A stretch of 64,000 nucleotides of DNA from an uncultured Acidobacteriota bacterium (GCA_963805975.1 CAWDVR010000001.1:1455911-1519910); one strand, 5' to 3'. Shown: positions 17,894 to 35,355, counted from the first letter of the stretch. Numbers and translations: made by a program. Notes: generated from the sequence alone by a model not told the origin.

Positions 17894-18496
17894 ATGAGTG
17901 CCGCCCACCGCCCCCGCCCGGCCGAGAATGAGGTCAGGGAACCGCAGCAGGTGGCCTATGCCGCGGAAGCCCCGCGGGCGCTTTTTCTCGATCACGTCGT
18001 GGAACGCATCGCCACGGAGATGCGGTTCCTGGCCCGCGCTTATGCCGCGCAAGGCCGCTCTCTCGAGGAGCTGGGCTCGGCGGATGAGGTGGCCAACCGG
18101 ATGGTTGCCACCCTGCCCGCACCGTCCGGCTGGAACGCGGTGCTGGGACCGTTCTACGGCTCGGCCCAGATCGGCAAGATCCTGGGCAACGTCTCCCGGC
18201 AGGCGGTGGCCGACCGTCGGTCCCGGCGCACGCTGCTGGCTCTGCGCACTTCGGACGGCCAGTGGGTCTACCCGACCTTTCAGTTCGACGAGCGCCAGGA
18301 AGTTCTAACAGGCCTGCCGGCAGTAGTGCAGATCCTCGCCGAGAGCGGAGTCGACGACTGGACGCTGGCCGGCTGGCTGGTATCTCCGATGCGTTCCCTC
18401 GGCGGCGCCACTCCTATCGACTGGCTGCGTTCCGGGAACGACGCTGTGATTCTCCGGACCTTGGCGCGCGATGCAGCGCGGCGTTTCGCGCAGTAG
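17894..18496 (+). CDS. Xre/MbcA-like antitoxin
   Basis: HTH segment (VSRQAV), YPTFQF, and C-terminal WL.SP..SLGGATP.DWL. Lies directly upstream of a RES gene. Confidence 0.7.
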   Translation: MSAAHRPRPAENEVREPQQVAYAAEAPRALFLDHVVERIATEMRFLARAYAAQGRSLEELGSADEVANRMVATLPAPSGWNAVLGPFYGSAQIGKILGNVSRQAVADRRSRRTLLALRTSDGQWVYPTFQFDERQEVLTGLPAVVQILAESGVDDWTLAGWLVSPMRSLGGATPIDWLRSGNDAVILRTLARDAARRFAQ

Positions 18497-18513
18497 AACA
18501 AACGCCAGCCGCC

Positions 18514-19155
18514 GTGCCCAAGCGAAGCGAGACCGTGAGCCTGGCCCCGCCGCCGGCAGACCCGGCGGCGCTCGAGGGTTTTCCGCGGATGGTGCTCGAG
18601 AGCGTGACCTGCCTGTATCGCGTGGGCCGCGCCGAGCGCTCACCCTGGTGGTTCGGAAGCTCGCTCGAGGGCCGCTTCGATCTGCCCGAGCCCGACGGCA
18701 CCTGCTACGTGGCTCTCGATCCTCTCGCCGCCCTGCTGGAGGTGATCGGGCCCGACCGCGAGCGCGGCTATCTGAGCGCCGAGCACTTGGCTCGCCGTCG
18801 AATCTACGAGCTCTATCTCGAAGACGACCGCGTCCTTGCCGACCTCCCCGCAACGCAGGCCGCCGCCTTCGGAGTGACACTCGAGATCCACGCCATCGTT
18901 CCCTACGACCTTCCCCAGACCTGGGCGCACCGGCTCCGGGCCGCGGGATTCGAGGGCGTCCGATATCTCGTGCGTCACGATCCTTCGGGCGAAGACGGCC
19001 TCGCGCTGTTCGGCTCCCATGGCGGCCACCCGGACTGGCCAGTCGACGAGGAGAGGGAGATCGGCGCACAGATGCTCGAGCGGCTCGAGACCCGCTACGG
19101 CCTCAAGGTGCTCCGCATCCCACACTCGAGCCAGATCGAGGTCGTCGGCTCGTAG
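18514..19155 (+). CDS. RES-domain toxin
   Basis: LYRV, GRFDL, GTCYVALDPLAALLE, Q.WA, GFEGVRY, ALFG. Confidence 0.8.
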   Translation: MPKRSETVSLAPPPADPAALEGFPRMVLESVTCLYRVGRAERSPWWFGSSLEGRFDLPEPDGTCYVALDPLAALLEVIGPDRERGYLSAEHLARRRIYELYLEDDRVLADLPATQAAAFGVTLEIHAIVPYDLPQTWAHRLRAAGFEGVRYLVRHDPSGEDGLALFGSHGGHPDWPVDEEREIGAQMLERLETRYGLKVLRIPHSSQIEVVGS

Positions 19156-19188: not shown

Positions 19189-20364
19189 ATGCCTCGCCTT
19201 TCCCTCACCACCGGCGGTGAGAGCCACGGCCCGGGCCTGACGGCCGTCCTCGCCGGCATGCCGGCTGGGCTGCGCGTCGATCCGGCCTTCGTGCGGCACG
19301 AGCTCAAGCGCCGCCAGCACGGCTTCGGCCGCGGCCGGCGCATGCAGATCGAGCAGGACGAGGCCGAGATTCGCGGCGGGGTGCGGGGCGGCGAGACCCT
19401 GGGCTCCCCCATCGTGCTGTGGATCGAGAACCGCGACTACCGGGCGTGGGAGTCGGTGATGAACCCGCTCGCCAACGACCGGGAGCGGAGCGAGCAGCGG
19501 CGGCTCAAGACACCGCGGCCCGGCCATGCGGATCTCGCCGGCGGGCTCAAGTTCCTGCGCACCGACCTGCGCGACGTGCTGGAGCGCGCCTCGGCCCGGG
19601 AGACCACGGCGCGGGTGGCGGCGGGCGCCTTTGCCAAGCTGTTCCTCGCCGAGCTCGGCGTCGAGATCCGGAGCGGCGTCCGCTCGCTGGGGCCGATCGG
19701 CGCCGGCCGGGCGGCTCCGACCTGGGAGGAGATCGAACAGGTGGACGACGGCTCGCCGCTGCGCGCCATCGACCGCGAGCGCGAGCCCGAGATGGTGGCG
19801 CTCATCGAGCGCGCCAAGAAAGAGGGCGACACGCTGGGCGGCGCCGTCACCGTCATCGCCCACAACGTGCCCCCCGGCCTCGGCTCGCACGTGCACTGGG
19901 ACGAAAAGCTCGACGGCCGCCTGGCCCAGGCCGTGATGTCGGTGCCGGCGGTCAAGGCGGTCGAGATCGGTGCCGGCCTCGCGGCCTCGGCTGGCTTCGG
20001 CAGTCAGGCGCACGACGCCATCGAGCGTTCCGATGAGCGCTGGCACCGGCCCACCAACCGCGCCGGGGGCATCGAGGGCGGGATCACCAACGGCGCCGAC
20101 GTAGTGATCACCGCCTACAAGAAACCGATCTCGACCCTCATTCAGGGGATGCCGAGCGTCGACCTGGACACACTGGCGGCCGTGACCTCGCAGTACGAGC
20201 GCAGCGACATCACCGCCCTGCCCGCTGCCGGCGTGATCGCCGAGGCCATGGTGGCGCTGGTGCTGGCGGACGCGGCTCTCGAGAAGCTGGGCGGCGACTC
20301 GATGGCCGAGGTCATGGCGCACTTCCTGGCGACGACGGCTCAGCAGGCGGCCTGGCCCCGGTAG
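19189..20364 (+). CDS. aroC: chorismate synthase
   Basis: GESHG, PRPGHAD, ERASARET, NRAGGIEGGITNG, ERSD. Confidence 0.97.
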   Translation: MPRLSLTTGGESHGPGLTAVLAGMPAGLRVDPAFVRHELKRRQHGFGRGRRMQIEQDEAEIRGGVRGGETLGSPIVLWIENRDYRAWESVMNPLANDRERSEQRRLKTPRPGHADLAGGLKFLRTDLRDVLERASARETTARVAAGAFAKLFLAELGVEIRSGVRSLGPIGAGRAAPTWEEIEQVDDGSPLRAIDREREPEMVALIERAKKEGDTLGGAVTVIAHNVPPGLGSHVHWDEKLDGRLAQAVMSVPAVKAVEIGAGLAASAGFGSQAHDAIERSDERWHRPTNRAGGIEGGITNGADVVITAYKKPISTLIQGMPSVDLDTLAAVTSQYERSDITALPAAGVIAEAMVALVLADAALEKLGGDSMAEVMAHFLATTAQQAAWPR

Positions 20365-20481
20365 GCCGCGCACTCGAAGGCCTGGTGGAAGGCGGTTGGC
20401 GAGGGGCCGCAATCTCCTCTGTGCCGGTTCCGGCTTATACTGGAGTGAGAAAGTAAGGATACCTCTCACCGGTTTCGAAAA

Positions 20482-21117
20482 ATGGGCCAAGAGGAAGCCG
20501 GTGGTCTGCTGCAACGAGCCCTGGCCGGCGATCAGATCTCTCTGTCCCGCCTGGTTGCCGTGCTGACGCCGGTGATCCAGGCGCGGGCCGCGCGTACCTT
20601 GCTGCCCCGCCGCTCGCGTCTCGCCGACGGGCGAAGCATGCGGCAGGAGGTCGAGGACGTCAGCCAGGAGATCTTCGTCCTGCTCTTCTCCAACAACGCC
20701 CGGGTCCTGCGTAGCTGGCAGGCGGAGCGCGGCCTTTCTCTCGAGAACTTCGTCGGTCTGGTCACCCAACGGCAGATCGTCTCCTTCCTCCGCAGCGGCA
20801 AGCGGAACCCGTGGCGGGAGGAGCCCTTCGCCGCGGAGGATCTCCTCACCGAAGCGCCGGAGCCTGGGCCCGAGCAGGTCGCCGCCAGCCGCGAGCAACT
20901 TCGCCTGGTGCTCGATCGGCTACGGGCCGACGTAAGCCCCCTGGGCTGGCGGCTCTTCGAGCTGCTCTTCATCGAGGAGCTGCCGCTGCCCGAGGTCATG
21001 GCCGCGAGTGGCCTCTCCGCCGACGCGGTCTACGCCTGGCGGAGCCGTCTGCGCCGGCTGGCCCACCAGTTGCTGGCTGGCTTGTCAGGAAACTCGGCGG
21101 GCGGGCGAAATACGTAG
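20482..21117 (+). CDS. ECF-type RNA polymerase sigma factor
   Basis: Region 2 (VEDVSQEIFVLL) and region 4 HTH (EVMAASGLSADAVYAWRSRLRR); 211 aa. Confidence 0.85.
   Translation: MGQEEAGGLLQRALAGDQISLSRLVAVLTPVIQARAARTLLPRRSRLADGRSMRQEVEDVSQEIFVLLFSNNARVLRSWQAERGLSLENFVGLVTQRQIVSFLRSGKRNPWREEPFAAEDLLTEAPEPGPEQVAASREQLRLVLDRLRADVSPLGWRLFELLFIEELPLPEVMAASGLSADAVYAWRSRLRRLAHQLLAGLSGNSAGGRNT
21083..21109 (+). promoter_or_regulatory. putative ECF promoter, copy 1 (TGTCAG-N17-CGAA)
   Basis: TGTCAG gaaactcggcgggcggg CGAA, inside the sigma gene 3' end and just upstream of ATG 21132. Confidence 0.55.
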
Positions 21118-21131
21118 AGAGATGGCCACAC

Positions 21132-21947
21132 ATGAGTAAAGACCCACTGTTGAGCGATCTGGCGCGCCTGGCTCGCGAGGAAGACCGCGGCGAAGACATG
21201 GCCCTCGACGAGCGTTGGGATCGCCTTGCCGCGGGGACGCTCACCGCCGAAGAGGAGGCAGAGCTGAAGGCCCTCGCCGCGACCTCACCCGAGGCGCGGG
21301 ACGCCTACGAGGCCTTCCGGCCCCTCGGAGCCGAGTTCGAGGTTCGGATGGTGGCCGCGGCCGCCGCCGAGCTGAGCGGCGACCACCGAGAGGTCGACCC
21401 TCGGCCGGTGCCGGCTCGCGTGCTCCCGTTTCAGCGGCCTGCGGTGCGCCTGTGGGGCTCACTGGCCGCCGCAAGCGCGGTGGCGGCGTCGCTGCTCCTC
21501 CTCTTGCGCGGGCCGGGCGGACTGCCCCATCTGCCTGTCTACACCGCCGAGCTGAGCGGTGGGAGCCAGATCCTCCGCGGAGGCGACCTGGTCCTGGGGC
21601 CGCCGGTCTTCACCCTCGGTTCGTTGCTGACTCTCGAAGTCCGCCCGGCGCAGTCGGTGAATGGCCTGGTGGAAGCGCGCAGTTTCCTCACCCGCGGCGA
21701 GGAGGTGGTGCGCTGGGAGCGGGAGCCGCCCCTGGAGGTCGCCGGCGGCGCCGTGCGCCTGCGAGGAACGCTCGGCGAGGAGATCCGCCTGCCGGCGGGA
21801 GACTGGCGGCTGTGGATCGTCCTCGCCCGGCCAGGCGAGATGCCGTCGCCCGAGGAGGTCTTGGCAGATCGGGAGAGGAGCAGTGGGGGCCCCGGCTGGC
21901 AGGCGATTTCCGTGGAGCTGCGGGTGGAGGGCCTCTCCGACCCGTGA
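21132..21947 (+). CDS. putative membrane-anchored anti-sigma factor
   Basis: Directly follows the ECF gene. N-terminal segment WDRLAAGTLTAEEEAEL resembles anti-sigma domains, then one TM helix (LWGSLAAASAVAASLLLLL) and a beta-rich extracytoplasmic domain. Confidence 0.65.
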   Translation: MSKDPLLSDLARLAREEDRGEDMALDERWDRLAAGTLTAEEEAELKALAATSPEARDAYEAFRPLGAEFEVRMVAAAAAELSGDHREVDPRPVPARVLPFQRPAVRLWGSLAAASAVAASLLLLLRGPGGLPHLPVYTAELSGGSQILRGGDLVLGPPVFTLGSLLTLEVRPAQSVNGLVEARSFLTRGEEVVRWEREPPLEVAGGAVRLRGTLGEEIRLPAGDWRLWIVLARPGEMPSPEEVLADRERSSGGPGWQAISVELRVEGLSDP

Positions 21948-24685
21948 CCTCCCAGGAATCTCGGCCCGGCCGCGCCTTCGCCTTCCTCGTGGGCCTCGCC
22001 GGGGTGCTGCCGGGCTGCGGGCCCGGACCAGGGCCCGCGCCGCAGGTGGAGTATGCGCGTTGCTGGGCCGTGGACCTGCCCGGCCCGGTTTGCGTGCTCT
22101 ACCCTGATCGCCAGCTCAAGCTGTGGGTCGAGGCTGACCCTCGCGACAGCGTCGAGATCGAGGCCGGGGGCGAGCGCCTGCCAGCCACGGGCGAGGAAGT
22201 GGGGGGCGGCCGGCGTTACCTGCTGGAAGCTCCACCGGCGGCCACCACGCTCAACATCCGCCTGCACCGACCGGACGGCAGAGCGAGCGCGGCCTGGTCG
22301 CTGGCGCTCGCCGAGCCGGAGGCGCCGGCGTGGTTTGGCGAGATTCAAGGGCTTCTCGCGGCCGGCAAGACGGACGAGGCCCGGAGGGTGCTTGCTCCGC
22401 TGCGAGAGTCGGCGCCCGCTCGGCAGCAGGGACTGGTTCTGCAACTGCTGGCGCTGGCGGCCCTCTCCGCCGGAGACAAAGAAGGCGCCCTGGCCCATTT
22501 CGAGAGTGCCAAGGCAGCGGACCATGCCCGCCACCGGTTGAGCGGCGAGGCCCGGAACGCGGCCCTGCTAGCCCGGCTGCAACTGGAGAATGGCCGCTTC
22601 AGAGAGGCTCGTCAGAACCTGGGCGGCCTGTTGCTGACCGAGCCGGCACCGGCCGATGCGAAGGTTCTCGCGGCCTACTACGAGGGCCTCCTGGCGGACC
22701 AAGTGGGTGACTCCCGCCGGGCCTTGCAGCAGCTCCGAGAGGCTGCCGACCTGGCCGACCGAACCGGTCTCCTCCACTATCGCTGGCAGACCGAGCTGAC
22801 CCTGGCCCGGCTGCTCCGGGACCTCGGGCGCTCGCAGAGCGCGGAGGAGATCTTCGTGCGGCTTGCGGCGAACCCCCATTTCGAGACGCCTTGCGACCGT
22901 GGGGTCCTGCTCCAGAACTGGTCCTGGTCGCGGCTGATCGGTCGCGAGGGAGGCGAGGAGGCCATGGACCCGACCGCGATGCTGGAGGAAGCCCTCGCGT
23001 TCTTCGACCGTAACTCCTGCGCTCGTCCGGAGCAACGCCTCAACGCTCGTCTGAACCTCGCGCTCGCTCAGCAGCAGGCCGGCCGCTGGCGTGAGGCGCG
23101 CCGGCTGCTCGCCGAGGCACTGCCGCTGGCGGACCATGCGACCCTGCGCCAGCGCCTGTGGTGGCAGGATCTCGACGGCCGGGCAGCCATCGCCGAAGGC
23201 CAACCGGCGCGTGCCCTGCGCCTCTACCAGGCCCTCCAAGAGATAGCGGAGCAGTCCCTCTCGCGCGAAGGGAGCTTCCGGGCCTGCTTCGGCCGGGCCC
23301 GGGCGGAGCTCGCTCGGGGTCGCCGCGGTGCCGCCCTTGCCACCCTCGTGGAGGCGGATCGGCTCAGCGAGGAGCAGGTCTGGCAGATCCCGCTCCACGA
23401 GGGGCGCGACACTTTTCTTGCCATGCGCGAAGCCGCCACGCGGCTCCACCTGGAGCTCTTGCTGGCGGCCGGGCGGCACGAACAGGCCTTTGCCCTGGCG
23501 AGGCGTTCCCGCTCGCGACTGCTCCGGCAACTGATGGTGCGGGATCGCCTCGCCCAGCTCACCGCGGGAGAGCAGGAGGAATGGGACCGGGCGTTGTCCG
23601 ACTACCAGGCCTTGCGGGCCGAGATCGACCGCGAGGCTGCAGCGGCCTGGCAGCTGCCGAAAGATCAGGTCCGGCGAGCCGGCGAGGGCCGGGCCGCGCA
23701 GCTCGCGGGGGCCCTCGCGGAGCTCGACCGGGCCGTGGCCGGCCTGGGAGATCTCGCGCCGGGCGGCGAGGGGGCGCTCGCCCCGCCGCGGCCGGGTGAG
23801 CTGATCCTGGCCTACCACCCCTTGCCCGGGGGTTGGGTAGGCTTCGCTGCCCACCCCGGCGCGGTCGAGGTGCACCGCTTCGAGCTGTCGCGGGAAGAGC
23901 TCGCCCATCCCGCGGCTCTGGCCCTGAGGCTGCTCGAGCCCTTCCGCTCGGCGATCGCGCAGGCCGAACGGCTGCGGGTGCTGGCCTACGGTGATCTGAG
24001 GCCGATCGACTTCCACGCCCTGCCTTTCGCCGGTGAGCCCCTCCTCGCTCGGCTTCCCGTGATCTTCGGGCTCGATCTACCCACCCGCAGCGCCGCCGGC
24101 CGCGAGGGCCCGCGGATCGCCCTCCTGGTCACCGACCCGGAAGGCAACCTGCCGGCGGCACGGCAGGAGGCCGCCCAAGTCGCCGCGAGAATCGACGGTT
24201 GGGGCCCGGCGTGGGACCTCCGACGCCTCGACCGCCAGGCTGCCAGCGCCGGGGCACTGCGCGCCGCGCTTCCTCGAGCCGAGCTCTTCCACTACGCCGG
24301 TCACGGGGCCTTCGCGGGCTTCGCCGGCTGGGACAGCGTTCTGCGGCTGGCAGACAGCTCGCGGCTGACTCCCGCAGACATCCTGATCCTGCCCCAGGCC
24401 CCCGCCTGGGCCGTCCTCTCTGCCTGCGAAGCGGGGCGATCGTCCGGGGAGGCCCCGGGTGAAGGAATTGGCCTGGCGCAGGCGTTCCTGCTGGCCGGCA
24501 CGCGAGCGGTGGTCGCGGCCACCCGCCCGGTGACGGACCGTGCCGCTCGCGACCTGCTGGGAGAGCTCTACCGCGACTGGAAGCCCGGTGAGGATCTGGC
24601 GCAGGCGCTCCGGGCGGCCCAGCTCGCTTGCCGGCGGCAGGACCCGGCCGCTGACTGGGCGAGCTTCCGACTGCTCGAACCTTGA
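21944..24685 (+). CDS. TPR-CHAT (caspase-like clan CD) protease, probable lipoprotein
   Basis: GTG 21944 overlaps the upstream stop. Lipobox-like GVLPGC, helical repeats, CHAT dyad motifs FHYAGHG and VLSACE, GLAQAFLLAG, terminal WASF. Confidence 0.85.
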   Translation: MTSQESRPGRAFAFLVGLAGVLPGCGPGPGPAPQVEYARCWAVDLPGPVCVLYPDRQLKLWVEADPRDSVEIEAGGERLPATGEEVGGGRRYLLEAPPAATTLNIRLHRPDGRASAAWSLALAEPEAPAWFGEIQGLLAAGKTDEARRVLAPLRESAPARQQGLVLQLLALAALSAGDKEGALAHFESAKAADHARHRLSGEARNAALLARLQLENGRFREARQNLGGLLLTEPAPADAKVLAAYYEGLLADQVGDSRRALQQLREAADLADRTGLLHYRWQTELTLARLLRDLGRSQSAEEIFVRLAANPHFETPCDRGVLLQNWSWSRLIGREGGEEAMDPTAMLEEALAFFDRNSCARPEQRLNARLNLALAQQQAGRWREARRLLAEALPLADHATLRQRLWWQDLDGRAAIAEGQPARALRLYQALQEIAEQSLSREGSFRACFGRARAELARGRRGAALATLVEADRLSEEQVWQIPLHEGRDTFLAMREAATRLHLELLLAAGRHEQAFALARRSRSRLLRQLMVRDRLAQLTAGEQEEWDRALSDYQALRAEIDREAAAAWQLPKDQVRRAGEGRAAQLAGALAELDRAVAGLGDLAPGGEGALAPPRPGELILAYHPLPGGWVGFAAHPGAVEVHRFELSREELAHPAALALRLLEPFRSAIAQAERLRVLAYGDLRPIDFHALPFAGEPLLARLPVIFGLDLPTRSAAGREGPRIALLVTDPEGNLPAARQEAAQVAARIDGWGPAWDLRRLDRQAASAGALRAALPRAELFHYAGHGAFAGFAGWDSVLRLADSSRLTPADILILPQAPAWAVLSACEAGRSSGEAPGEGIGLAQAFLLAGTRAVVAATRPVTDRAARDLLGELYRDWKPGEDLAQALRAAQLACRRQDPAADWASFRLLEP

Positions 24686-24702
24686 GAGACAGCCGGGCCT
24701 GC

Positions 24703-24729
24703 TGTCAGAAACCTCCGCTTCGCCGCGAA
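24703..24729 (+). promoter_or_regulatory. putative ECF promoter, copy 2
   Basis: TGTCAG aaacctccgcttcgccg CGAA in the intergenic region upstream of the S8 gene. Confidence 0.6.
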
Positions 24730-24816
24730 GGCCCTCCTGGGTAGCGGCAATCGATCCACGCGGGGCTCACCCCACCACGGGGCGACCTTTCTCGCCGCGC
24801 CTGGGAGAGATGTCCT

Positions 24817-26961
24817 ATGAAATCCGGAAGCCTTTGTGTCGTAGCCCTGATCGGATTGGTGTGGGCCGCCGCCGGGCATGCGGCTTCGGTGTCGATCCCA
24901 CCCGAAGGCGAAGCCGACTACCCGCAAACGCCGGTCGTGGTGCCACAGACGAGTCGGTCGATCGATCCCAAGAGCGCCATCGCGCACTGGCGGCAGATCG
25001 GCCTGCGGAGCAAGGCCACGGACCGGTGCCCAACGGTGGATGGTTGGGCCGTCGAGAGCCTGCTGAGCCGAGCTCTCTCCTCGACGAACTGTGGGCCCGA
25101 GACCCTCGACCCCCAAGGCCCGTCCGAGGCCGCGCTCCGCGAGGAGCTGACAGACCTCGCCTTGCTGCGAAAGCTTGGGCTGGATCGGATCTGCCTCTAC
25201 ACCGCCGACCCGCGCAACATTCCAGCCTTCAAGAAGGACGGCAAGCTGCCCGCCGACCTGGTGGCAGCGGCACCAGATCGCATGGCCCTGGCGCCAGCCG
25301 CGACGCCGGAAGCTTCGCTCGGCACGCTGGCCTTGGAGAGCTGGCAGATCCTGCGCACCCATTTCCTGGAGCAGGCTGGCAACACCTTCGATCCCGCCAA
25401 CCGGCTGCGCTTCACCGGCAAGCCGAGCGTCCGCCTGGTCTTCCTCGATACCCATCCAACCGGCGAGCGTGTACCGAGCGGTCCCGGTCGCTCGTTTCAC
25501 GGCTACACCCTGGCCCACTTGGCCAACCAACTCATTTGCGGTGGCGAAGCCGGCTGTGCGGTCGAGATCGATACCCGCCTCGCAATGCCCTATGTGAACT
25601 TCGATGAATCGTCCGCCGACGAGGAGAGAGGAGGAAAGATGGGCCTGGTGGCCAACCTCTCTGCGGCGATCCTCGAGGAGGTTTGGCAGTGGCGGCGGGA
25701 TCGCGACCCTGACCGGCCAAAGCACCTGGTGCTCAACCTGTCGTTGGGTTGGGATGGCGAGCTCTTCGGCGATCTCAACGCGCAGACCGTCTCCAGGCTC
25801 GAACCGGGGGTCAGGGCGGTCTACGACGCGCTGACCTTCGCCCGCGACCTCGGAGTGCTGGTGGTTGCCGCCGCCGGCAACGAGCGCGGGGGGCCGGCGA
25901 AGCCCTCCAGCCCCCTGTTTCCCGCCGTCTGGGAGCTGCATAGGCCAGCCAGTGGGCCATTCGCTTCTTGCAGAAAACCGATCTACGCCGTCGGCGGAGT
26001 GGACTGGCAAGGGCTGCCGGTGGCCAACGCCCGCACTGATGGCAAACCACGGCGTTCCGCCTACGCGGATCACGCCGTGACCGGCACCGAAGCCAGAGGA
26101 GCCGAGAGTCCTACGTGGATCTACACCGGAACCTCGGTGGGGGCCGCCGTCACCTCGTCGATCGCCGCCGCCGTCTGGCACCTGCGCCCGGAGCTGGGCC
26201 CAGGCCAGGTAATGAGGTTGATCGACCGCTCCGGAGAATCCCTGGAGGCGCGTGCCGACTTCTACCCCTGGCAGCGGAATCCGCTACTGCGCTGGATCCG
26301 AGGCGAACCGCGGCTCCGCCGGGTGTCTCTCTGCCGCGCGACCGCTCTCGCCCGGGGCCGAGGGCCGGAGTGCTTCTGCCCCAAGTGGAGACGCGAGCCG
26401 CCGGTGCTGGCGCGCCCGATGCCTCCCCCAGCGACCGATTTCGTGGAGAGCGACCCGGAAGCCTATGGTCAGCGCTGCACGTCCACCAGACGGCTGATGG
26501 TCAACGACAACCTCCTGCCAAAGGAGATCTGCCCGGCGGAGAGATTCGGCGACATCGCCAGTCAGCGCTGGACCTTTCCCCAGCCCGAGGACAACCCCTG
26601 CATGGGCTGCGCGCTGATCCCGCCGCGAGAAACCGCCACCTTTCCGGAGCCCGAGGGCCCTCCGCCTTACACCCTGCAGATGGCCCTTCGTCCTGGGTGG
26701 CGCGACGAGGGCGCCGAGATCCTCGCCGCCACCCTCGACATCGAGCGTTTCGAGGGCGACCGGATGACCTACGTGATTTCTCAGGAACATATCGATAGGC
26801 TCAATGATCGAGACCCAATCCCGACCGGGACCAGCATCCAGCTTCTATTCAGCTTGGCCGACCGCGGGTCGCTCTGGGGCTGCACGGCCCGGCTCAACTT
26901 CAAGGTGAGGCGCGGCGACGAGGTCACATCGATCATCGACCCGGTGATCGTGGACCCCTAG
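24817..26961 (+). CDS. secreted S8 (subtilisin-like) serine peptidase, Cys-rich
   Basis: Signal peptide; triad motifs LVFLDT, FHGYTLA and YTGTSVGAA; NLSLG; oxyanion motif VAAAGNE. Confidence 0.85.
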   Translation: MKSGSLCVVALIGLVWAAAGHAASVSIPPEGEADYPQTPVVVPQTSRSIDPKSAIAHWRQIGLRSKATDRCPTVDGWAVESLLSRALSSTNCGPETLDPQGPSEAALREELTDLALLRKLGLDRICLYTADPRNIPAFKKDGKLPADLVAAAPDRMALAPAATPEASLGTLALESWQILRTHFLEQAGNTFDPANRLRFTGKPSVRLVFLDTHPTGERVPSGPGRSFHGYTLAHLANQLICGGEAGCAVEIDTRLAMPYVNFDESSADEERGGKMGLVANLSAAILEEVWQWRRDRDPDRPKHLVLNLSLGWDGELFGDLNAQTVSRLEPGVRAVYDALTFARDLGVLVVAAAGNERGGPAKPSSPLFPAVWELHRPASGPFASCRKPIYAVGGVDWQGLPVANARTDGKPRRSAYADHAVTGTEARGAESPTWIYTGTSVGAAVTSSIAAAVWHLRPELGPGQVMRLIDRSGESLEARADFYPWQRNPLLRWIRGEPRLRRVSLCRATALARGRGPECFCPKWRREPPVLARPMPPPATDFVESDPEAYGQRCTSTRRLMVNDNLLPKEICPAERFGDIASQRWTFPQPEDNPCMGCALIPPRETATFPEPEGPPPYTLQMALRPGWRDEGAEILAATLDIERFEGDRMTYVISQEHIDRLNDRDPIPTGTSIQLLFSLADRGSLWGCTARLNFKVRRGDEVTSIIDPVIVDP

Positions 26962-26983
26962 CGGAATCTCTACGTCTCGCCTC

Positions 26984-27021
26984 ACGCTGCCGGCCGGGGT
27001 CGAGCCCTCGGCCGGCAGCGT
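26984..27021. terminator. hairpin between convergent genes (possible bidirectional terminator)
   Basis: 13-bp perfect inverted repeat ACGCTGCCGGCCG / CGGCCGGCAGCGT; no U-tract. Confidence 0.5.
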
Positions 27022-27285
27022 TCACTGCTCGAGCTCTTCATGGGGCGAGACGGCATACGCTTCGTCGTCTCCGCCGGGCACCAACGTGCAACCCATGCAC
27101 GGGTTGTTCGCGGGCTTGTCCCACGCCCGTACTAACCACCGCTGTAGGAGCTCCCAGAGAGCGCCGACCCCGAAGACCGTTTTCGCCCCACCACGCACCG
27201 GCGCCGCCCCCGCAAGGGACGATCCCGACAGCATGGCAAGGGCTACCACCACGACCACCGCGAAGCGCAGCTCACGTCGTGCCAT
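27022..27285 (-). CDS. small secreted protein (87 aa) with NPCMGC motif
   Basis: GGAGG SD before ATG 27285; signal peptide (MARRELRFAVVVVVALAMLSGSSLAGA); Trp-rich amphipathic segment; then KPANNPCMGCTLVP. Confidence 0.75.
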   Translation of the reverse strand: MARRELRFAVVVVVALAMLSGSSLAGAAPVRGGAKTVFGVGALWELLQRWLVRAWDKPANNPCMGCTLVPGGDDEAYAVSPHEELEQ

Positions 27286-27374
27286 GCCGTCCTCCGTTCG
27301 CTTGCAAGCCCCGCCGGCCACCGTCGGTCGAGTCGGTTCCGGTACTCTAACCCGCGGGCGGTTCACGGTTCTGC

Positions 27375-27401
27375 TGTCAGAAATCCCCCGCGGCCAGCGA
27401 A
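27375..27401 (+). promoter_or_regulatory. putative ECF promoter, copy 3
   Basis: TGTCAG aaatcccccgcggccag CGAA. Confidence 0.55.
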
Positions 27402-27569
27402 GTGCTCTGTATCGAGGCCGGAAGACAGGATCTCCCTGTTTTCACGAGCACGGAGTACTTCATCATGGCAAACGAACGGAGCTTGCGTCGTCGGGAAAAG
27501 CAAGCGATCTACAGCCTCGTAGCGACTTCACAGTGGCCGGGAGAGTGGAGCTGAGGGGCCCGAAAGGGG

Positions 27570-28451
27570 TCAGGCGAGGAGCACCAGCGCCACGCCCACG
27601 GCCATCAGCAATGCCGCCACCAGCTTGCTCGCCGTCACCGGCTCGCCGAAGGCGAGGCGACCGAAGACCACCGCCAGCAGATTGCCCACACCACGCTTGA
27701 CGGTCTCGATCACGCTCACCCAGAGCACCGAGAGGGCCGCGATCTGGAGCGCCAGCGCCGAGAACCCCACCAGCACGCCCGTGGCGAGCAAACCGGGAGC
27801 CGAGCGGGCGGCACCGAGCGAGCCGAGACGGCCGCGTAGGGCGAGCAGCGCGAGGGCCGGCAGAGCGATTCCCAGATTGAGCAACGTGCCGTGTGTCGGC
27901 CCGTTCGCGCGCTCGATCGCCAGCTTGTCGAAGCCGATGGCCACCGCCCACAGGAGCGCCACCGCCAGCATCAGCAGCACTCCGCGCTGCTCGGCCCCGC
28001 GCTGCTTCAGCCACGCGAGGCCCGAGCCCGGCGTGCTGGTCAGCGCGAGCGCGCCCGCCACCACCAGCAGCGTGCCGGCGACCTTCGGCCAGCCCGGCGC
28101 CTCGCCCAGAACGAGCGCGGCGAAGAGCGTGGCGAAGACCGGCGTGAAGCTCAAGAGCGGCACCGTGGTCGAGAGCGGCGCGGCCCGAACCGACGCGAAG
28201 TAGGCAAGGTTGGCCAGTAGGTTGAGCCCGACCGAGCCCAGGGCCGGCAGCCAGTAGGAGCTCGCCGGCGTCGCGAAGCCGCCGGCGAGGCCCCAGAGCG
28301 CGAAGAGCGGCACGTTGGCGGCCGTCATCCAGGCGAGGAGCGGCAGCGGCTCGATCTTCCCCACCAGCAGCTTGCGCAGCAGGTCGAGGCAGCTCCAGCC
28401 CAACGCCGAGGCAAGGAGCGCCGCGACCGACAGGGTCACGATCCCGGTCAT
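27570..28451 (-). CDS. DMT/EamA family transporter
   Basis: About 10 hydrophobic segments in two EamA-like halves (PLLSFTPVFATL..LGE; FGEPV). ATG 28451. Confidence 0.85.
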   Translation of the reverse strand: MTGIVTLSVAALLASALGWSCLDLLRKLLVGKIEPLPLLAWMTAANVPLFALWGLAGGFATPASSYWLPALGSVGLNLLANLAYFASVRAAPLSTTVPLLSFTPVFATLFAALVLGEAPGWPKVAGTLLVVAGALALTSTPGSGLAWLKQRGAEQRGVLLMLAVALLWAVAIGFDKLAIERANGPTHGTLLNLGIALPALALLALRGRLGSLGAARSAPGLLATGVLVGFSALALQIAALSVLWVSVIETVKRGVGNLLAVVFGRLAFGEPVTASKLVAALLMAVGVALVLLA

Positions 28452-33452: not shown

Positions 33453-35150
33453 TTATTCCACGCGGCGGTAAAAGCGCTCGATCTCCGCCGCCGCGGGTCG
33501 GCCGAGGAAGCGGAAGTCCGGCCGTGGGCTCGAGACCTCGCCGCTGAAGGCCTTCCAGGCGAAGAGACCGGCGAGCCACGTCTTGTCCTCCAGGGCGGCG
33601 AGGAGAGCGCGGTAGGCCGCGGCCTGGTCGCGGAGGGAGAGCTCGCCCCCCTCCCGGTGTGGGTCTACCCAGGCGGCGCGACGGGCCGCGAAGCCCACTT
33701 CGGTCAGGACCAAGGGCTTGCCGAAGCGCGCAGCCGCGGCAGCCAGCTTCTCCACCACCCGGTGCGCGCCGGCCGCCAGCGCTTCGTCCGAGGCGTCCGG
33801 CGCCGAGGCGAGCGGGTAGTAGGCGTCCACCCCGACGAGGTCGAGCCGGTCCCAGAACGGCGCGTTCTCGAGGCCCCCGTACCAGTTGGCGGCATAGGTC
33901 AAGAGGCCCGGATAGAGGCGGCGTACGGCCGCGATCAGCTCCAGCCACTCCCGCTTCCGCGGCAGGGTCTTGTCGAGCTCCACGCCGATCGCCAGGAGCT
34001 CGGCGCCGGCCCAGCGCGCGAGAAACGCGTGATGCAGCACGTAGCGGCGGTAGGCGCTCCACCAGGCCCGCCAATCCGCCTCGCTCGTCATCTCGACCTC
34101 GCCCGGCCAGGACTCGTGGGACACCCACACGTGCGGCTTCCACAGCACCGTGAAGCCCTTGGCATGAGCACGCCGTGCGGCGTGGAGACAGCCGATGTCG
34201 GTCTCGGCGCGCGGGCCGCGCAGCAGGTAGACCATCTCCGGCCGGCCCGGCGCCGGCTGGTAGGCGAAAGGCATGATGGCGACCGAGTCCGCTGCCAGCT
34301 CACGCAGCCGGTCGAGCTGGCCGTCGACGCTCGGCGAGTGGTAGCCCTGCTCCACGCTGTTGAGCATGGCGAGGGAAACGCCTCGGTACTTAAGGCCCTT
34401 GCCGCGGCCGAGCGGCAGACGAGAAACGGCCGGCTCGGCCTCCTTATCGCGCCTGGCGATCCGGGCCAGCACGGCTTCCACCTCGTCCGGCTTCCAGGGA
34501 GAGGCGAGCTTCTCGGCGAGAGTGTTCCCCGGCCGGGCCTCGATCACCGCCGCTGCGGCCGGCGTCCAGAGGAGCGCCGAGCCATCCCGCTGCTCGATCT
34601 CGGCGAGCAGCTCGGCGGCCAGGGGCAGCGCACCCGCCGCGGCAAAGCCCGGCAGCCACTCGGCGTAGCCGCGCCCGTACCAGTCGCCGGCCAGCCAGAG
34701 CGCCGCCCCACGCGCAATCCAGGGCCGCTGGCCGCGTGCCAGACCGGCCCGCTCGACCAGCCGGCGGGCGAGCGCCACGTGGTACGCGGCGAGGTCGCGC
34801 GCGTCGAAGACCAGGTGCAGATCGAAGCCCGCTCCCCCGGCCTCGCCGCCACGCCCGGCCACGGCCTCCCCCACCTCGCCCGTTTCCCGGGCCTGGGTCA
34901 CGTGGTCCGGCTCGACGATCAGGGTGAACGGCCGCTCGACCGCGATCGGCACCCGCGGCGCCATCGCGGCCACCGCTGCTTCGAGCTCGGCGCCGAGCCG
35001 CGCGAGCTCGGGGCGAACCGGCGAGCCGGCGCGGACGAAGAGCCGCACGGCCTTGCCGGAGAACGCGAGGGGGTGCAGAGCAGGCGGCTCGGCCGCGAGG
35101 GCGGCGACCGCCGCGAAGCCCAGACCAAGGGCGACTAGGAAAGTCTGCAC
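33453..35150 (-). CDS. secreted glycoside hydrolase, GH113-like TIM barrel at the C-terminus (start uncertain)
   Basis: LWKPHVW, IGVEL, LTYAANW, GVDAYYPL, LTEVGF; signal-peptide-like N-terminus from GTG 35150. Confidence 0.75.
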   Translation of the reverse strand: MQTFLVALGLGFAAVAALAAEPPALHPLAFSGKAVRLFVRAGSPVRPELARLGAELEAAVAAMAPRVPIAVERPFTLIVEPDHVTQARETGEVGEAVAGRGGEAGGAGFDLHLVFDARDLAAYHVALARRLVERAGLARGQRPWIARGAALWLAGDWYGRGYAEWLPGFAAAGALPLAAELLAEIEQRDGSALLWTPAAAAVIEARPGNTLAEKLASPWKPDEVEAVLARIARRDKEAEPAVSRLPLGRGKGLKYRGVSLAMLNSVEQGYHSPSVDGQLDRLRELAADSVAIMPFAYQPAPGRPEMVYLLRGPRAETDIGCLHAARRAHAKGFTVLWKPHVWVSHESWPGEVEMTSEADWRAWWSAYRRYVLHHAFLARWAGAELLAIGVELDKTLPRKREWLELIAAVRRLYPGLLTYAANWYGGLENAPFWDRLDLVGVDAYYPLASAPDASDEALAAGAHRVVEKLAAAAARFGKPLVLTEVGFAARRAAWVDPHREGGELSLRDQAAAYRALLAALEDKTWLAGLFAWKAFSGEVSSPRPDFRFLGRPAAAEIERFYRRVE

Positions 35151-35190
35151 CGAGCGCGATGGTAAGGCGAAATCGGGCAGTCCGTGAGGA

Positions 35191-35272
35191 AGATGGATTC
35201 CCACTTTCGCGGGAATGACGGAGGGACGACTGCGTTCTCTTCTGTCATTCCCGCGAAAGCGGGAATCCATCT
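35191..35272. repeat. inverted pair of REP-like palindromes (GTCATTCCCGCGAAAGCGGGAATCCA type)
   Basis: 35191-35219 and 35244-35272 are reverse complements with one mismatch; each arm is itself a hairpin. Confidence 0.85.
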
Positions 35273-35355
35273 GTCACGAGCGAACGGCCGGAGGAGGCAA
35301 GGCTCCCGGAGTCAACCTCCGGAAGCCTCAGATCAATCGAGACTTAGGACGACCC

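Follow-up and report, generated by a model that had tools for sequence, protein, structure and literature searches.

A short bipartite motif, TGTCAGRAA and GCGAA separated by a spacer of 13 nucleotides (nt), occurs three times within a gene cassette of an uncultured Acidobacteriota bacterium, and it is probably a -35/-10 promoter that is read by the extracytoplasmic function (ECF) sigma factor encoded in the cassette itself. The DNA analyzed, hereafter the window, is a stretch of 64,000 nt (GCA_963805975.1 CAWDVR010000001.1:1455911-1519910), and all positions are counted from its first letter. That the motif is the target promoter of this sigma factor had been proposed from the window alone (hereafter the sequence-only reading), and the comparisons with related genomes now support it because the motif combines a fixed spacing with a free spacer, keeps one orientation, lies just upstream of genes, co-occurs with the sigma family, and carries signs of selection at the codon level. 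On these comparative grounds, the conserved ECF-type promoter appears to be real, and its wiring is unusual. The features of the cassette, with their strands, are as follows.

20365..27569, no strand: the whole cassette, an insertion of ~7.2 kb between the convergent genes aroC (19189-20364) and EamA (ends at 27570).
20436..20441, + strand: TATACT, the predicted sigma-70-type -10 box of the sigma gene, with no consensus -35.
20482..21117, + strand: a divergent ECF-type sigma factor of 211 amino acids (aa), the single member of its family in the genome.
21083..21109, + strand: motif copy 1, inside the 3' end of the sigma gene (its final 12 codons), with the anti-sigma ATG 22 nt downstream.
21132..21947, + strand: a predicted membrane anti-sigma factor of 271 aa, with four N-terminal helices, one transmembrane helix, and an Ig-like C-terminal domain.
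21944..24685, + strand: a TPR-CHAT (caspase-like) protein of 913 aa, with a lipobox Cys25 and a His787/Cys828 dyad (Pfam CHAT, E 4e-30).
24703..24729, + strand: motif copy 2, intergenic, with the subtilase ATG 87 nt downstream.
24817..26961, + strand: a subtilase (S8) of 714 aa, with Asp211/His228/Ser440 motifs (Pfam PF00082, E 6.3e-6).
27022..27285, - strand: an open reading frame (ORF) of 87 aa with a signal-peptide-like N-terminus, divergent from copy 3.
27375..27401, + strand: motif copy 3, a predicted promoter, now orphaned, with the start of a broken cargo gene 63 nt downstream.
27465..27569, + strand: the 5' remnant of the cargo gene, ~35 codons, with a frameshift near 27485 and cut off at the EamA stop (27570).

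A pattern search of the window returned exactly three matches to TGTCAG-N17-CGAA, all on the + strand (21083-21109, 24703-24729, and 27375-27401), and inspection of the sequence confirmed that all three copies fit the extended consensus TGTCAG[AG]AA-N13-GCGAA, as the sequence-only reading had described. The accompanying statement that two of the copies precede cluster genes needed correction, in that a start codon lies ahead of all three (22, 87, and 63 nt downstream, respectively); the one ahead of copy 3 belongs to a broken gene, and the adjoining intact ORF of 87 codons is on the opposite strand. Shuffles of the window gave a mean of 0.14 matches to TGTCAG-N17-CGAA, and 1 of 100 shuffles reached three, so that the 10-base pattern alone, picked post hoc, is only modestly significant in the window. 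Because this pattern is weak by itself and was chosen after the fact, independent tests by comparison have to carry the case for the motif. In the genome as a whole (5.36 Mb), five matches to the loose pattern were counted at N17 compared with zero to four at other spacings. A weight matrix trained solely on copy 1 of other genomes scored the window copies at 28.8, 26.3, and 26.3 bits, the last two values being those of the non-coding copies 2 and 3. The genome-wide scan that had been put forward as a check of the motif placed it above background, as the only N17 sites of at least 22 bits in the 5.36 Mb were the three cassette copies, and no site at any other spacing from N11 to N27 was found at 25 bits. 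At a threshold of 18 bits, eight N17 sites were detected, three of them local, with zero to four at other spacings. As for the proposed ECF regulon, its three cassette sites stood; in this genome it is confined to the cassette, and distal targets are seen in relatives. A regulon spanning the genome was looked for here and not found, as the sites reaching 22 bits number just three. Of the distal candidates, the best (C5:710552; L110:1053-3345) is an intergenic site of 18.5 bits, within background, located 58 nt before the gene of a secreted-looking protein of 736 aa that has an HExxH-like motif and DUF5648 as its sole Pfam match.

A related cassette was defined by an ECF sigma factor, a membrane anti-sigma-like protein, a TPR-CHAT lipoprotein, and a subtilase; most of the 53 homologous loci, which come from Thermoanaerobaculia and myxobacteria, preserve this order of four genes, and no further regulator was conserved among the four core genes. 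Among the Acidobacteriota loci L002-L035, copy 1 was present in 32 of 34; copy 2, which follows the CHAT gene, was present in 27 of 29, and copy 3, which follows the subtilase, in 18 of 28, the denominators being the loci of sufficient length. The motif was found within 400 nt upstream of the sigma gene in none of 33 Acidobacteriota loci, which thus lack the arrangement of canonical autoregulated ECF sigma factors, and 26 of the 33 have a TATAAT-like box close to the start of the sigma gene, compared with 97 of 6800 control windows placed at random. The earlier claim that the sigma gene has no motif upstream and carries a TATACT -10 box instead was therefore borne out, with locus L038, outside this set, as the exception. 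A scan for full TTGACA/TATAAT sigma-70 promoters found none, and a terminator scan found one terminator-like site, at or below shuffle level. Throughout the loci, the matrix matched 111 sites at N17 on the sigma strand (training sites included) and 9 on the opposite strand, with 11 at N16 or N18. The 106 distinct sites other than copy 1, which were chosen by the matrix, read TGTCAGAAA-N13-GCGAA with a C-rich stretch after the -10 element, and the identity across their spacers was 0.34; the sites are bipartite, strictly spaced, and free in the spacer, as ECF-type promoters are.

Copy 1 lies within the coding sequence, and the end of the sigma gene was located in 52 of the 53 homologues (L046 was dropped). 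A regular expression, which makes the count partly circular, detected copy 1 at N17 in 43 of the 52. Independently of the regular expression, a fixed-offset count in 35 loci found that the -35 codon is TCA in 32 of them and that the triplet at the -10 is CGA in 33, the gene-body codon use for comparison being 9 TCA among 661 Ser codons and 58 CGA among 1123 Arg codons. Moreover, the sigma stop codon falls within the spacer in L028, L031, and L043, where the -10 part is retained as non-coding DNA. In this comparison of homologues, the rare codons together with the stop codons inside the spacer show selection on copy 1 at the DNA level. Copy 1 occurs mostly in one reading frame. Copy 1 has the variant CGTA in six loci, all of them myxobacterial kin; five of these were found to have a second site, and it too reads CGTA.

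Beyond the loci, the exact 14-base pattern was present in all 28 sigma-carrying genomes searched (94 sites, vs 0 for the reversed-pattern control), and 27 of the 28 had at least one exact site besides copy 1. An even sample of the class, comprising 151 genomes, contained four carriers of this sigma; among the 147 genomes without it, four had one site and none had two. In addition, 41 sites away from the loci already examined were assessed (in 38 regions, ~8-10 being cassette pieces on other contigs). An ATG-initiated ORF of at least 100 aa, led by a Shine-Dalgarno (SD) sequence, began 15-135 nt downstream (median 60) of 32 of the 41 sites, compared with 112 of 3000 random positions, and the sites are thus directional and placed shortly upstream of genes in the manner of ECF-type promoters. 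The N-terminus of the downstream ORF was hydrophobic in 19 of these 32 cases vs 29 of the 112 random-position ORFs. The products of distal targets (34 scanned) included subtilases, a kumamolisin-like protease, vWA proteins (4), poly-gamma-glutamate hydrolase-like proteins (2), PAN, ricin-B-type, and kelch/lectin proteins, an M23 peptidase, a TIR protein, and many unknowns, and the cargo behind copy 3 or later copies included papain-, trypsin-, and lipase-family proteins. As predicted from these sites, a regulon exists in relatives beyond the cassette.

Among the distal targets, the most recurrent was a related vWA (integrin-beta-like) protein of 580-600 aa, present in four genomes (L072, L074, L083, and L099). 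In G020, a genome with two of these sigmas, a motif copy of 27 bits stands 161 nt before a phage-tail-sheath gene (PF04984/PF17482; L060:2589-5068, G020:C3), and a contractile injection system is possibly under the motif promoter there. A looser pattern, GTCAGA-N16-CGWA, gave 252 matches vs 77 for its reversed control in 16 genomes behind more distant loci, and was rejected as too loose and composition-dependent.

The assignment of the 211-aa protein to the sigma factors was examined by profile and structure comparisons. Sigma70_r2 was detected in 21 and r4_2 in 7 of 38 aligned homologues, and the sigma profile matched the ECF sigma factor ShbA (E 5.7e-6). The structure model (predicted local distance difference test score of 83.9) has two helical domains joined by a low-confidence linker; in a Foldseek search its top matches were mostly ECF sigmas (best E 8e-5), and its Atlas neighbours were sigma clusters. 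As modelled, the protein has the sigma-2 and sigma-4 domains only, as is typical of ECF (group 4 sigma-70) factors. The 271-aa protein is predicted to be the anti-sigma factor from its position and architecture; a hydrophobic, putatively membrane-spanning segment was found in 31 of 31 aligned homologues, no Pfam family matched the window protein or the 31 members, and its first 108 residues contain no Cys. The TPR-CHAT gene starts in overlap with the anti-sigma stop codon. Across loci, regular expressions found a lipobox-like motif in 24 of 35 TPR-CHAT proteins and the His-Cys dyad in 33 of 35, and export of the protein is predicted from the lipobox-like motif. The subtilase has a signal-peptide-like N-terminus and a conserved PCxxC motif in its C-terminal part (~26584-26620, + strand).

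A near copy of this PCxxC motif, which is itself conserved in many cassette subtilases, is carried by the 87-aa ORF on the minus strand, and L009 has a similar short minus-strand ORF with a PCxxC motif upstream of its sigma (~8314). The 87-aa ORF could encode a peptide signal or a decoy.

Under the proposed mechanism, a promoter with a housekeeping-type -10 would supply the sigma factor steadily, without autoinduction, and the sigma would be held by the membrane anti-sigma factor; upon a signal, the exported TPR-CHAT lipoprotein would cut the outer part of the anti-sigma factor, by analogy with DdvA, and the sigma would be freed. Once released, the sigma would initiate transcription at three places, a few bases past GCGAA. 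Transcription from copy 1 would supply more anti-sigma and TPR-CHAT protein and no more sigma, by which the switch would be damped and re-armed; copy 2 would drive the secreted subtilase, and copy 3 a variable cargo gene, of which a broken stub is left here where the inserted cassette ends. The promoter sequence is also found before scattered genes in relatives, many of them with signal-peptide-like N-termini. A broader picture may be drawn as a speculation that is rather improbable as a whole, namely that Acidobacteriota and myxobacteria share a mobile sigma switch that is gated by a protease and not autoregulated, in which a constitutive ECF sigma would be freed by a caspase-like lipoprotein cutting its anti-sigma, a promoter in the last codons of the sigma gene would re-arm the sensor, changing secreted cargo (proteases, lectins, vWA proteins, and one tail sheath) would be captured, and the conserved PCxxC segment of the subtilase, with its near copy in the small ORF here, could be a ligand or decoy that gates CHAT.

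Several observations weigh against the promoter and the mechanism as laid out above. Copy 1 is absent from 9 of the 52 homologues, and in L038 the motif lies upstream of the sigma gene (L038:8656) without a copy 1, which suggests that this locus may have conventional autoregulation and that the wiring can switch. The cassettes of the closest relatives (L106-L108) have copy 1 or copy 2 weak or missing, two cassettes of G020 have no site above 16.6 bits, and the class-sample carriers G133 and G041 hold only degenerate copies. The 28 sigma-carrying genomes were picked via the sigma gene and hence via a sequence that includes copy 1; they are also kin rather than independent samples. With regard to the proteins, the sigma matched no Pfam family and TIGR02937 only below the cut-off (E 4.1e-6), and the N-domain of the anti-sigma-like protein matched no solved anti-sigma factor, both fold searches being dominated by the Ig domain (residues 131-269). 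Furthermore, the cutting of the anti-sigma by CHAT is proposed by analogy, and for DdvA it is itself a hypothesis (PMC11506125).

Other explanations of the motif were considered against the same data. It is unlikely that the motif is a real regulatory site read by a different ECF sigma factor, or by a repressor or activator encoded elsewhere: such a factor would agree with the single exact site in 4 of the 147 sigma-less genomes, with the G020 cassettes that lack strong copies despite a strong distal site in that genome, and with the similar TGTC-type -35 boxes predicted for ECF37 and ECF41 (PMC7826278), but the motif travels with a patchy, horizontally placed cassette, the four core genes of which include no other conserved regulator, none of the three single sites examined (of the four in sigma-less genomes) faces a substantial gene start, and the site, unlike the operator of a dimer, is asymmetric and has a direction. 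If the motif were instead an RNA element, or a site of recombination or at the cassette boundary, this would account for the wide variation of the cargo after copy 3 among genomes and for the cassette being an insertion; however, there is no palindrome, the spacer is unconstrained, copy 1 sits in coding sequence between two genes that stay together, the sites keep a distance of 15-135 nt to start codons, and the insert has no copy at its left edge and no recombinase gene, all of which makes this very improbable. That the motif repeats by chance, or merely follows from conservation of the protein tail, might be read from the 1 in 100 shuffles with three loose matches and from the usual single frame of copy 1, but it is refuted by the rare-codon bias, the stops in the spacer, the conservation of the non-coding copies 2 and 3, and the 94 exact sites vs 0 in the control, and practically no likelihood is left to it.

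Granted that the motif is the promoter of the cassette sigma, the sign of the loop at copy 1 has to be weighed separately. The sequence-only reading held that copy 1 gives negative feedback by inducing the anti-sigma but not the sigma. The topology held up, but the loop need not be purely negative, because copy 1 would also drive the TPR-CHAT gene, whose start overlaps the stop codon of the anti-sigma gene. If the promoter reading is right, pure negative feedback, with TPR-CHAT as an effector or passenger that does not cut the anti-sigma, still has an appreciable chance, short of an even one. The copy-1 transcript excludes the sigma gene, the P3 promoter of Escherichia coli rseA has been seen as a source of extra inhibitor (PMC8595263), and CHAT cleavage in this anti-sigma family is a proposal by analogy; yet the overlap of the CHAT gene with the anti-sigma stop means that it would be co-induced, the lipobox-like motif (24/35) and the dyad (33/35) would place CHAT beside the outer domain of the anti-sigma, and DdvA fuses the same two modules (PMC11506125).

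The ATG that copy 3 points at, at position 27465, is SD-led. From its leader through its first codons, the remnant there matches the region behind copy 3 of L006 with a DNA score of 87, vs a maximum of 44 in 1000 shuffles, and this was the best match among 141 downstream regions. In L006, copy 3 is followed by an intact member (654 aa) of a widespread hypothetical family (650-750 aa, 430 matches), and the 35-residue stub, with X at the break, scored 74 vs two family members (shuffle maximum, 52). Near 27485, one low-depth contig (X1) from another soil sample has one extra base, and the frameshift at this point may be recent or an assembly error; either way, the EamA stop (27570) cuts the gene short. 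Among the contigs of one DNA run (share 0.07), none bridges the junction of the remnant with EamA, and a search of the genome with the L006 protein as query did not find the rest of the cargo gene elsewhere. Two other assignments of copy 3 were rejected: it does not serve as promoter of the 87-aa ORF, which is on the opposite strand, nor of a genuine 29-aa peptide, the stretch in question being the frameshifted 5' remnant.

The surroundings of the cassette were compared with those in relatives. G181 and G045 have aroC directly next to EamA, and in G184, G179, and G133 some 0.2-1.5 kb separates the two genes; in a same-genus genome the cassette is located elsewhere, with ~66-68% DNA identity vs 87% for aroC; and the GC content at third codon positions (GC3) is 0.76-0.85 inside the cassette vs 0.90-0.97 in four flanking genes. 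Because aroC and EamA adjoin in relatives, the cassette lies elsewhere in the same-genus genome, and GC3 is lower inside it, the cassette is, by genome comparison, an insertion, at whose right edge the cargo gene was truncated.

By appearance, the convergent aroC/EamA junction (20364/27570; L102-L105 and L109) is an insertion hot spot. The gene pair before aroC (17894-19155 of the window) consists of a weak Xre/MbcA/ParS-C antitoxin match (E 0.0075) followed by an ORF that is RES-like by eye and has no Pfam match, and is likely a toxin-antitoxin pair. Elsewhere in the window, at ~35140-35330 and 33453-33530, ORF translations contain SVIPAKAGIH / MDSRFRGND-like strings, which we take to be typical of short repeated palindromic elements.

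With regard to what is already known, bipartite ECF promoters and an internal promoter for an anti-sigma gene have both been described, so the principle has precedents. Prediction of ECF promoters builds on autoregulation and searches the DNA upstream of the sigma gene (PMC7826278), and a family with its promoter in the 3' end of the sigma gene would therefore seem motif-less. Literature searches found no description of the TGTCAG motif or of the cassette, and the part of the PMC7826278 supplement covered contained no TGTCAG; ECF-plus-caspase neighbourhoods of other architecture are mentioned in PMC8195603. This unstudied ECF family, whose hosts are uncultured Acidobacteriota and myxobacteria of soil, is coupled to a caspase-like TPR-CHAT protease, and the present analysis supplies a concrete, testable promoter for it, together with a list of targets.

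The closest parallel in wiring is rseA P3 of E. coli, a sigma-E promoter within rpoE that transcribes rseABC, i.e., the anti-sigma and downstream genes, without the sigma gene (PMC8595263). Both are ECF-type promoters inside a sigma coding region that face the anti-sigma gene, the position being observed here and the activity predicted. P3 lies >230 nt before rseA, whereas copy 1 is 22 nt before the anti-sigma; sigma-E drives its own gene (rpoE P), whereas no sigma-type site is found here upstream of the sigma; and the genes past the anti-sigma encode RseB/RseC there, compared with a caspase-like lipoprotein and a subtilase here. The DdvS/DdvA system of Myxococcus xanthus resembles the cassette in its ECF sigma, single-pass anti-sigma, and extracytoplasmic TPR-CHAT module with a His-Cys dyad (PMC11506125, PMC6061681), as well as in several fixed-spacing promoters clustered in one island. 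However, the DdvS promoter is GTAA-N16-CGT, including that of ddvSA itself, in contrast to TGTCAGRAA-N13-GCGAA; DdvA is a fused anti-sigma and TPR-CHAT protein with a CHCC zinc centre, whereas here the two are separate ORFs and the N-domain lacks cysteine; and the targets here are proteases and secreted proteins, with no CBASS or CRISPR genes in the insert.

ECF54 shares the neighbourhood of subtilase and TPR-CHAT genes, a proposed proteolytic control, and a predicted -35 element, GTATCAG, that has TCAG in common with the motif (PMC7826278, PMC8999054). ECF54 is 100% Actinobacteria, with no putative anti-sigma and a predicted -10 element of CTCC, unlike the present family, which occurs in Acidobacteriota and Myxococcota, has a gene for a transmembrane anti-sigma-like protein at +1, and uses a -10 of GCGAA/GCGTA. 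The predicted promoters of ECF41 (TGTCACA / CGTC) and ECF37 (TGTCAACC / CGTT) share the -35 start TGTCA and the -10 start CG (PMC7826278), but they differ in the bases after TGTCA and in the -10 element, in that their motifs are predicted upstream of the sigma, and in gene context. The cassette is filed under none of rseA P3, DdvS/DdvA, and ECF54.

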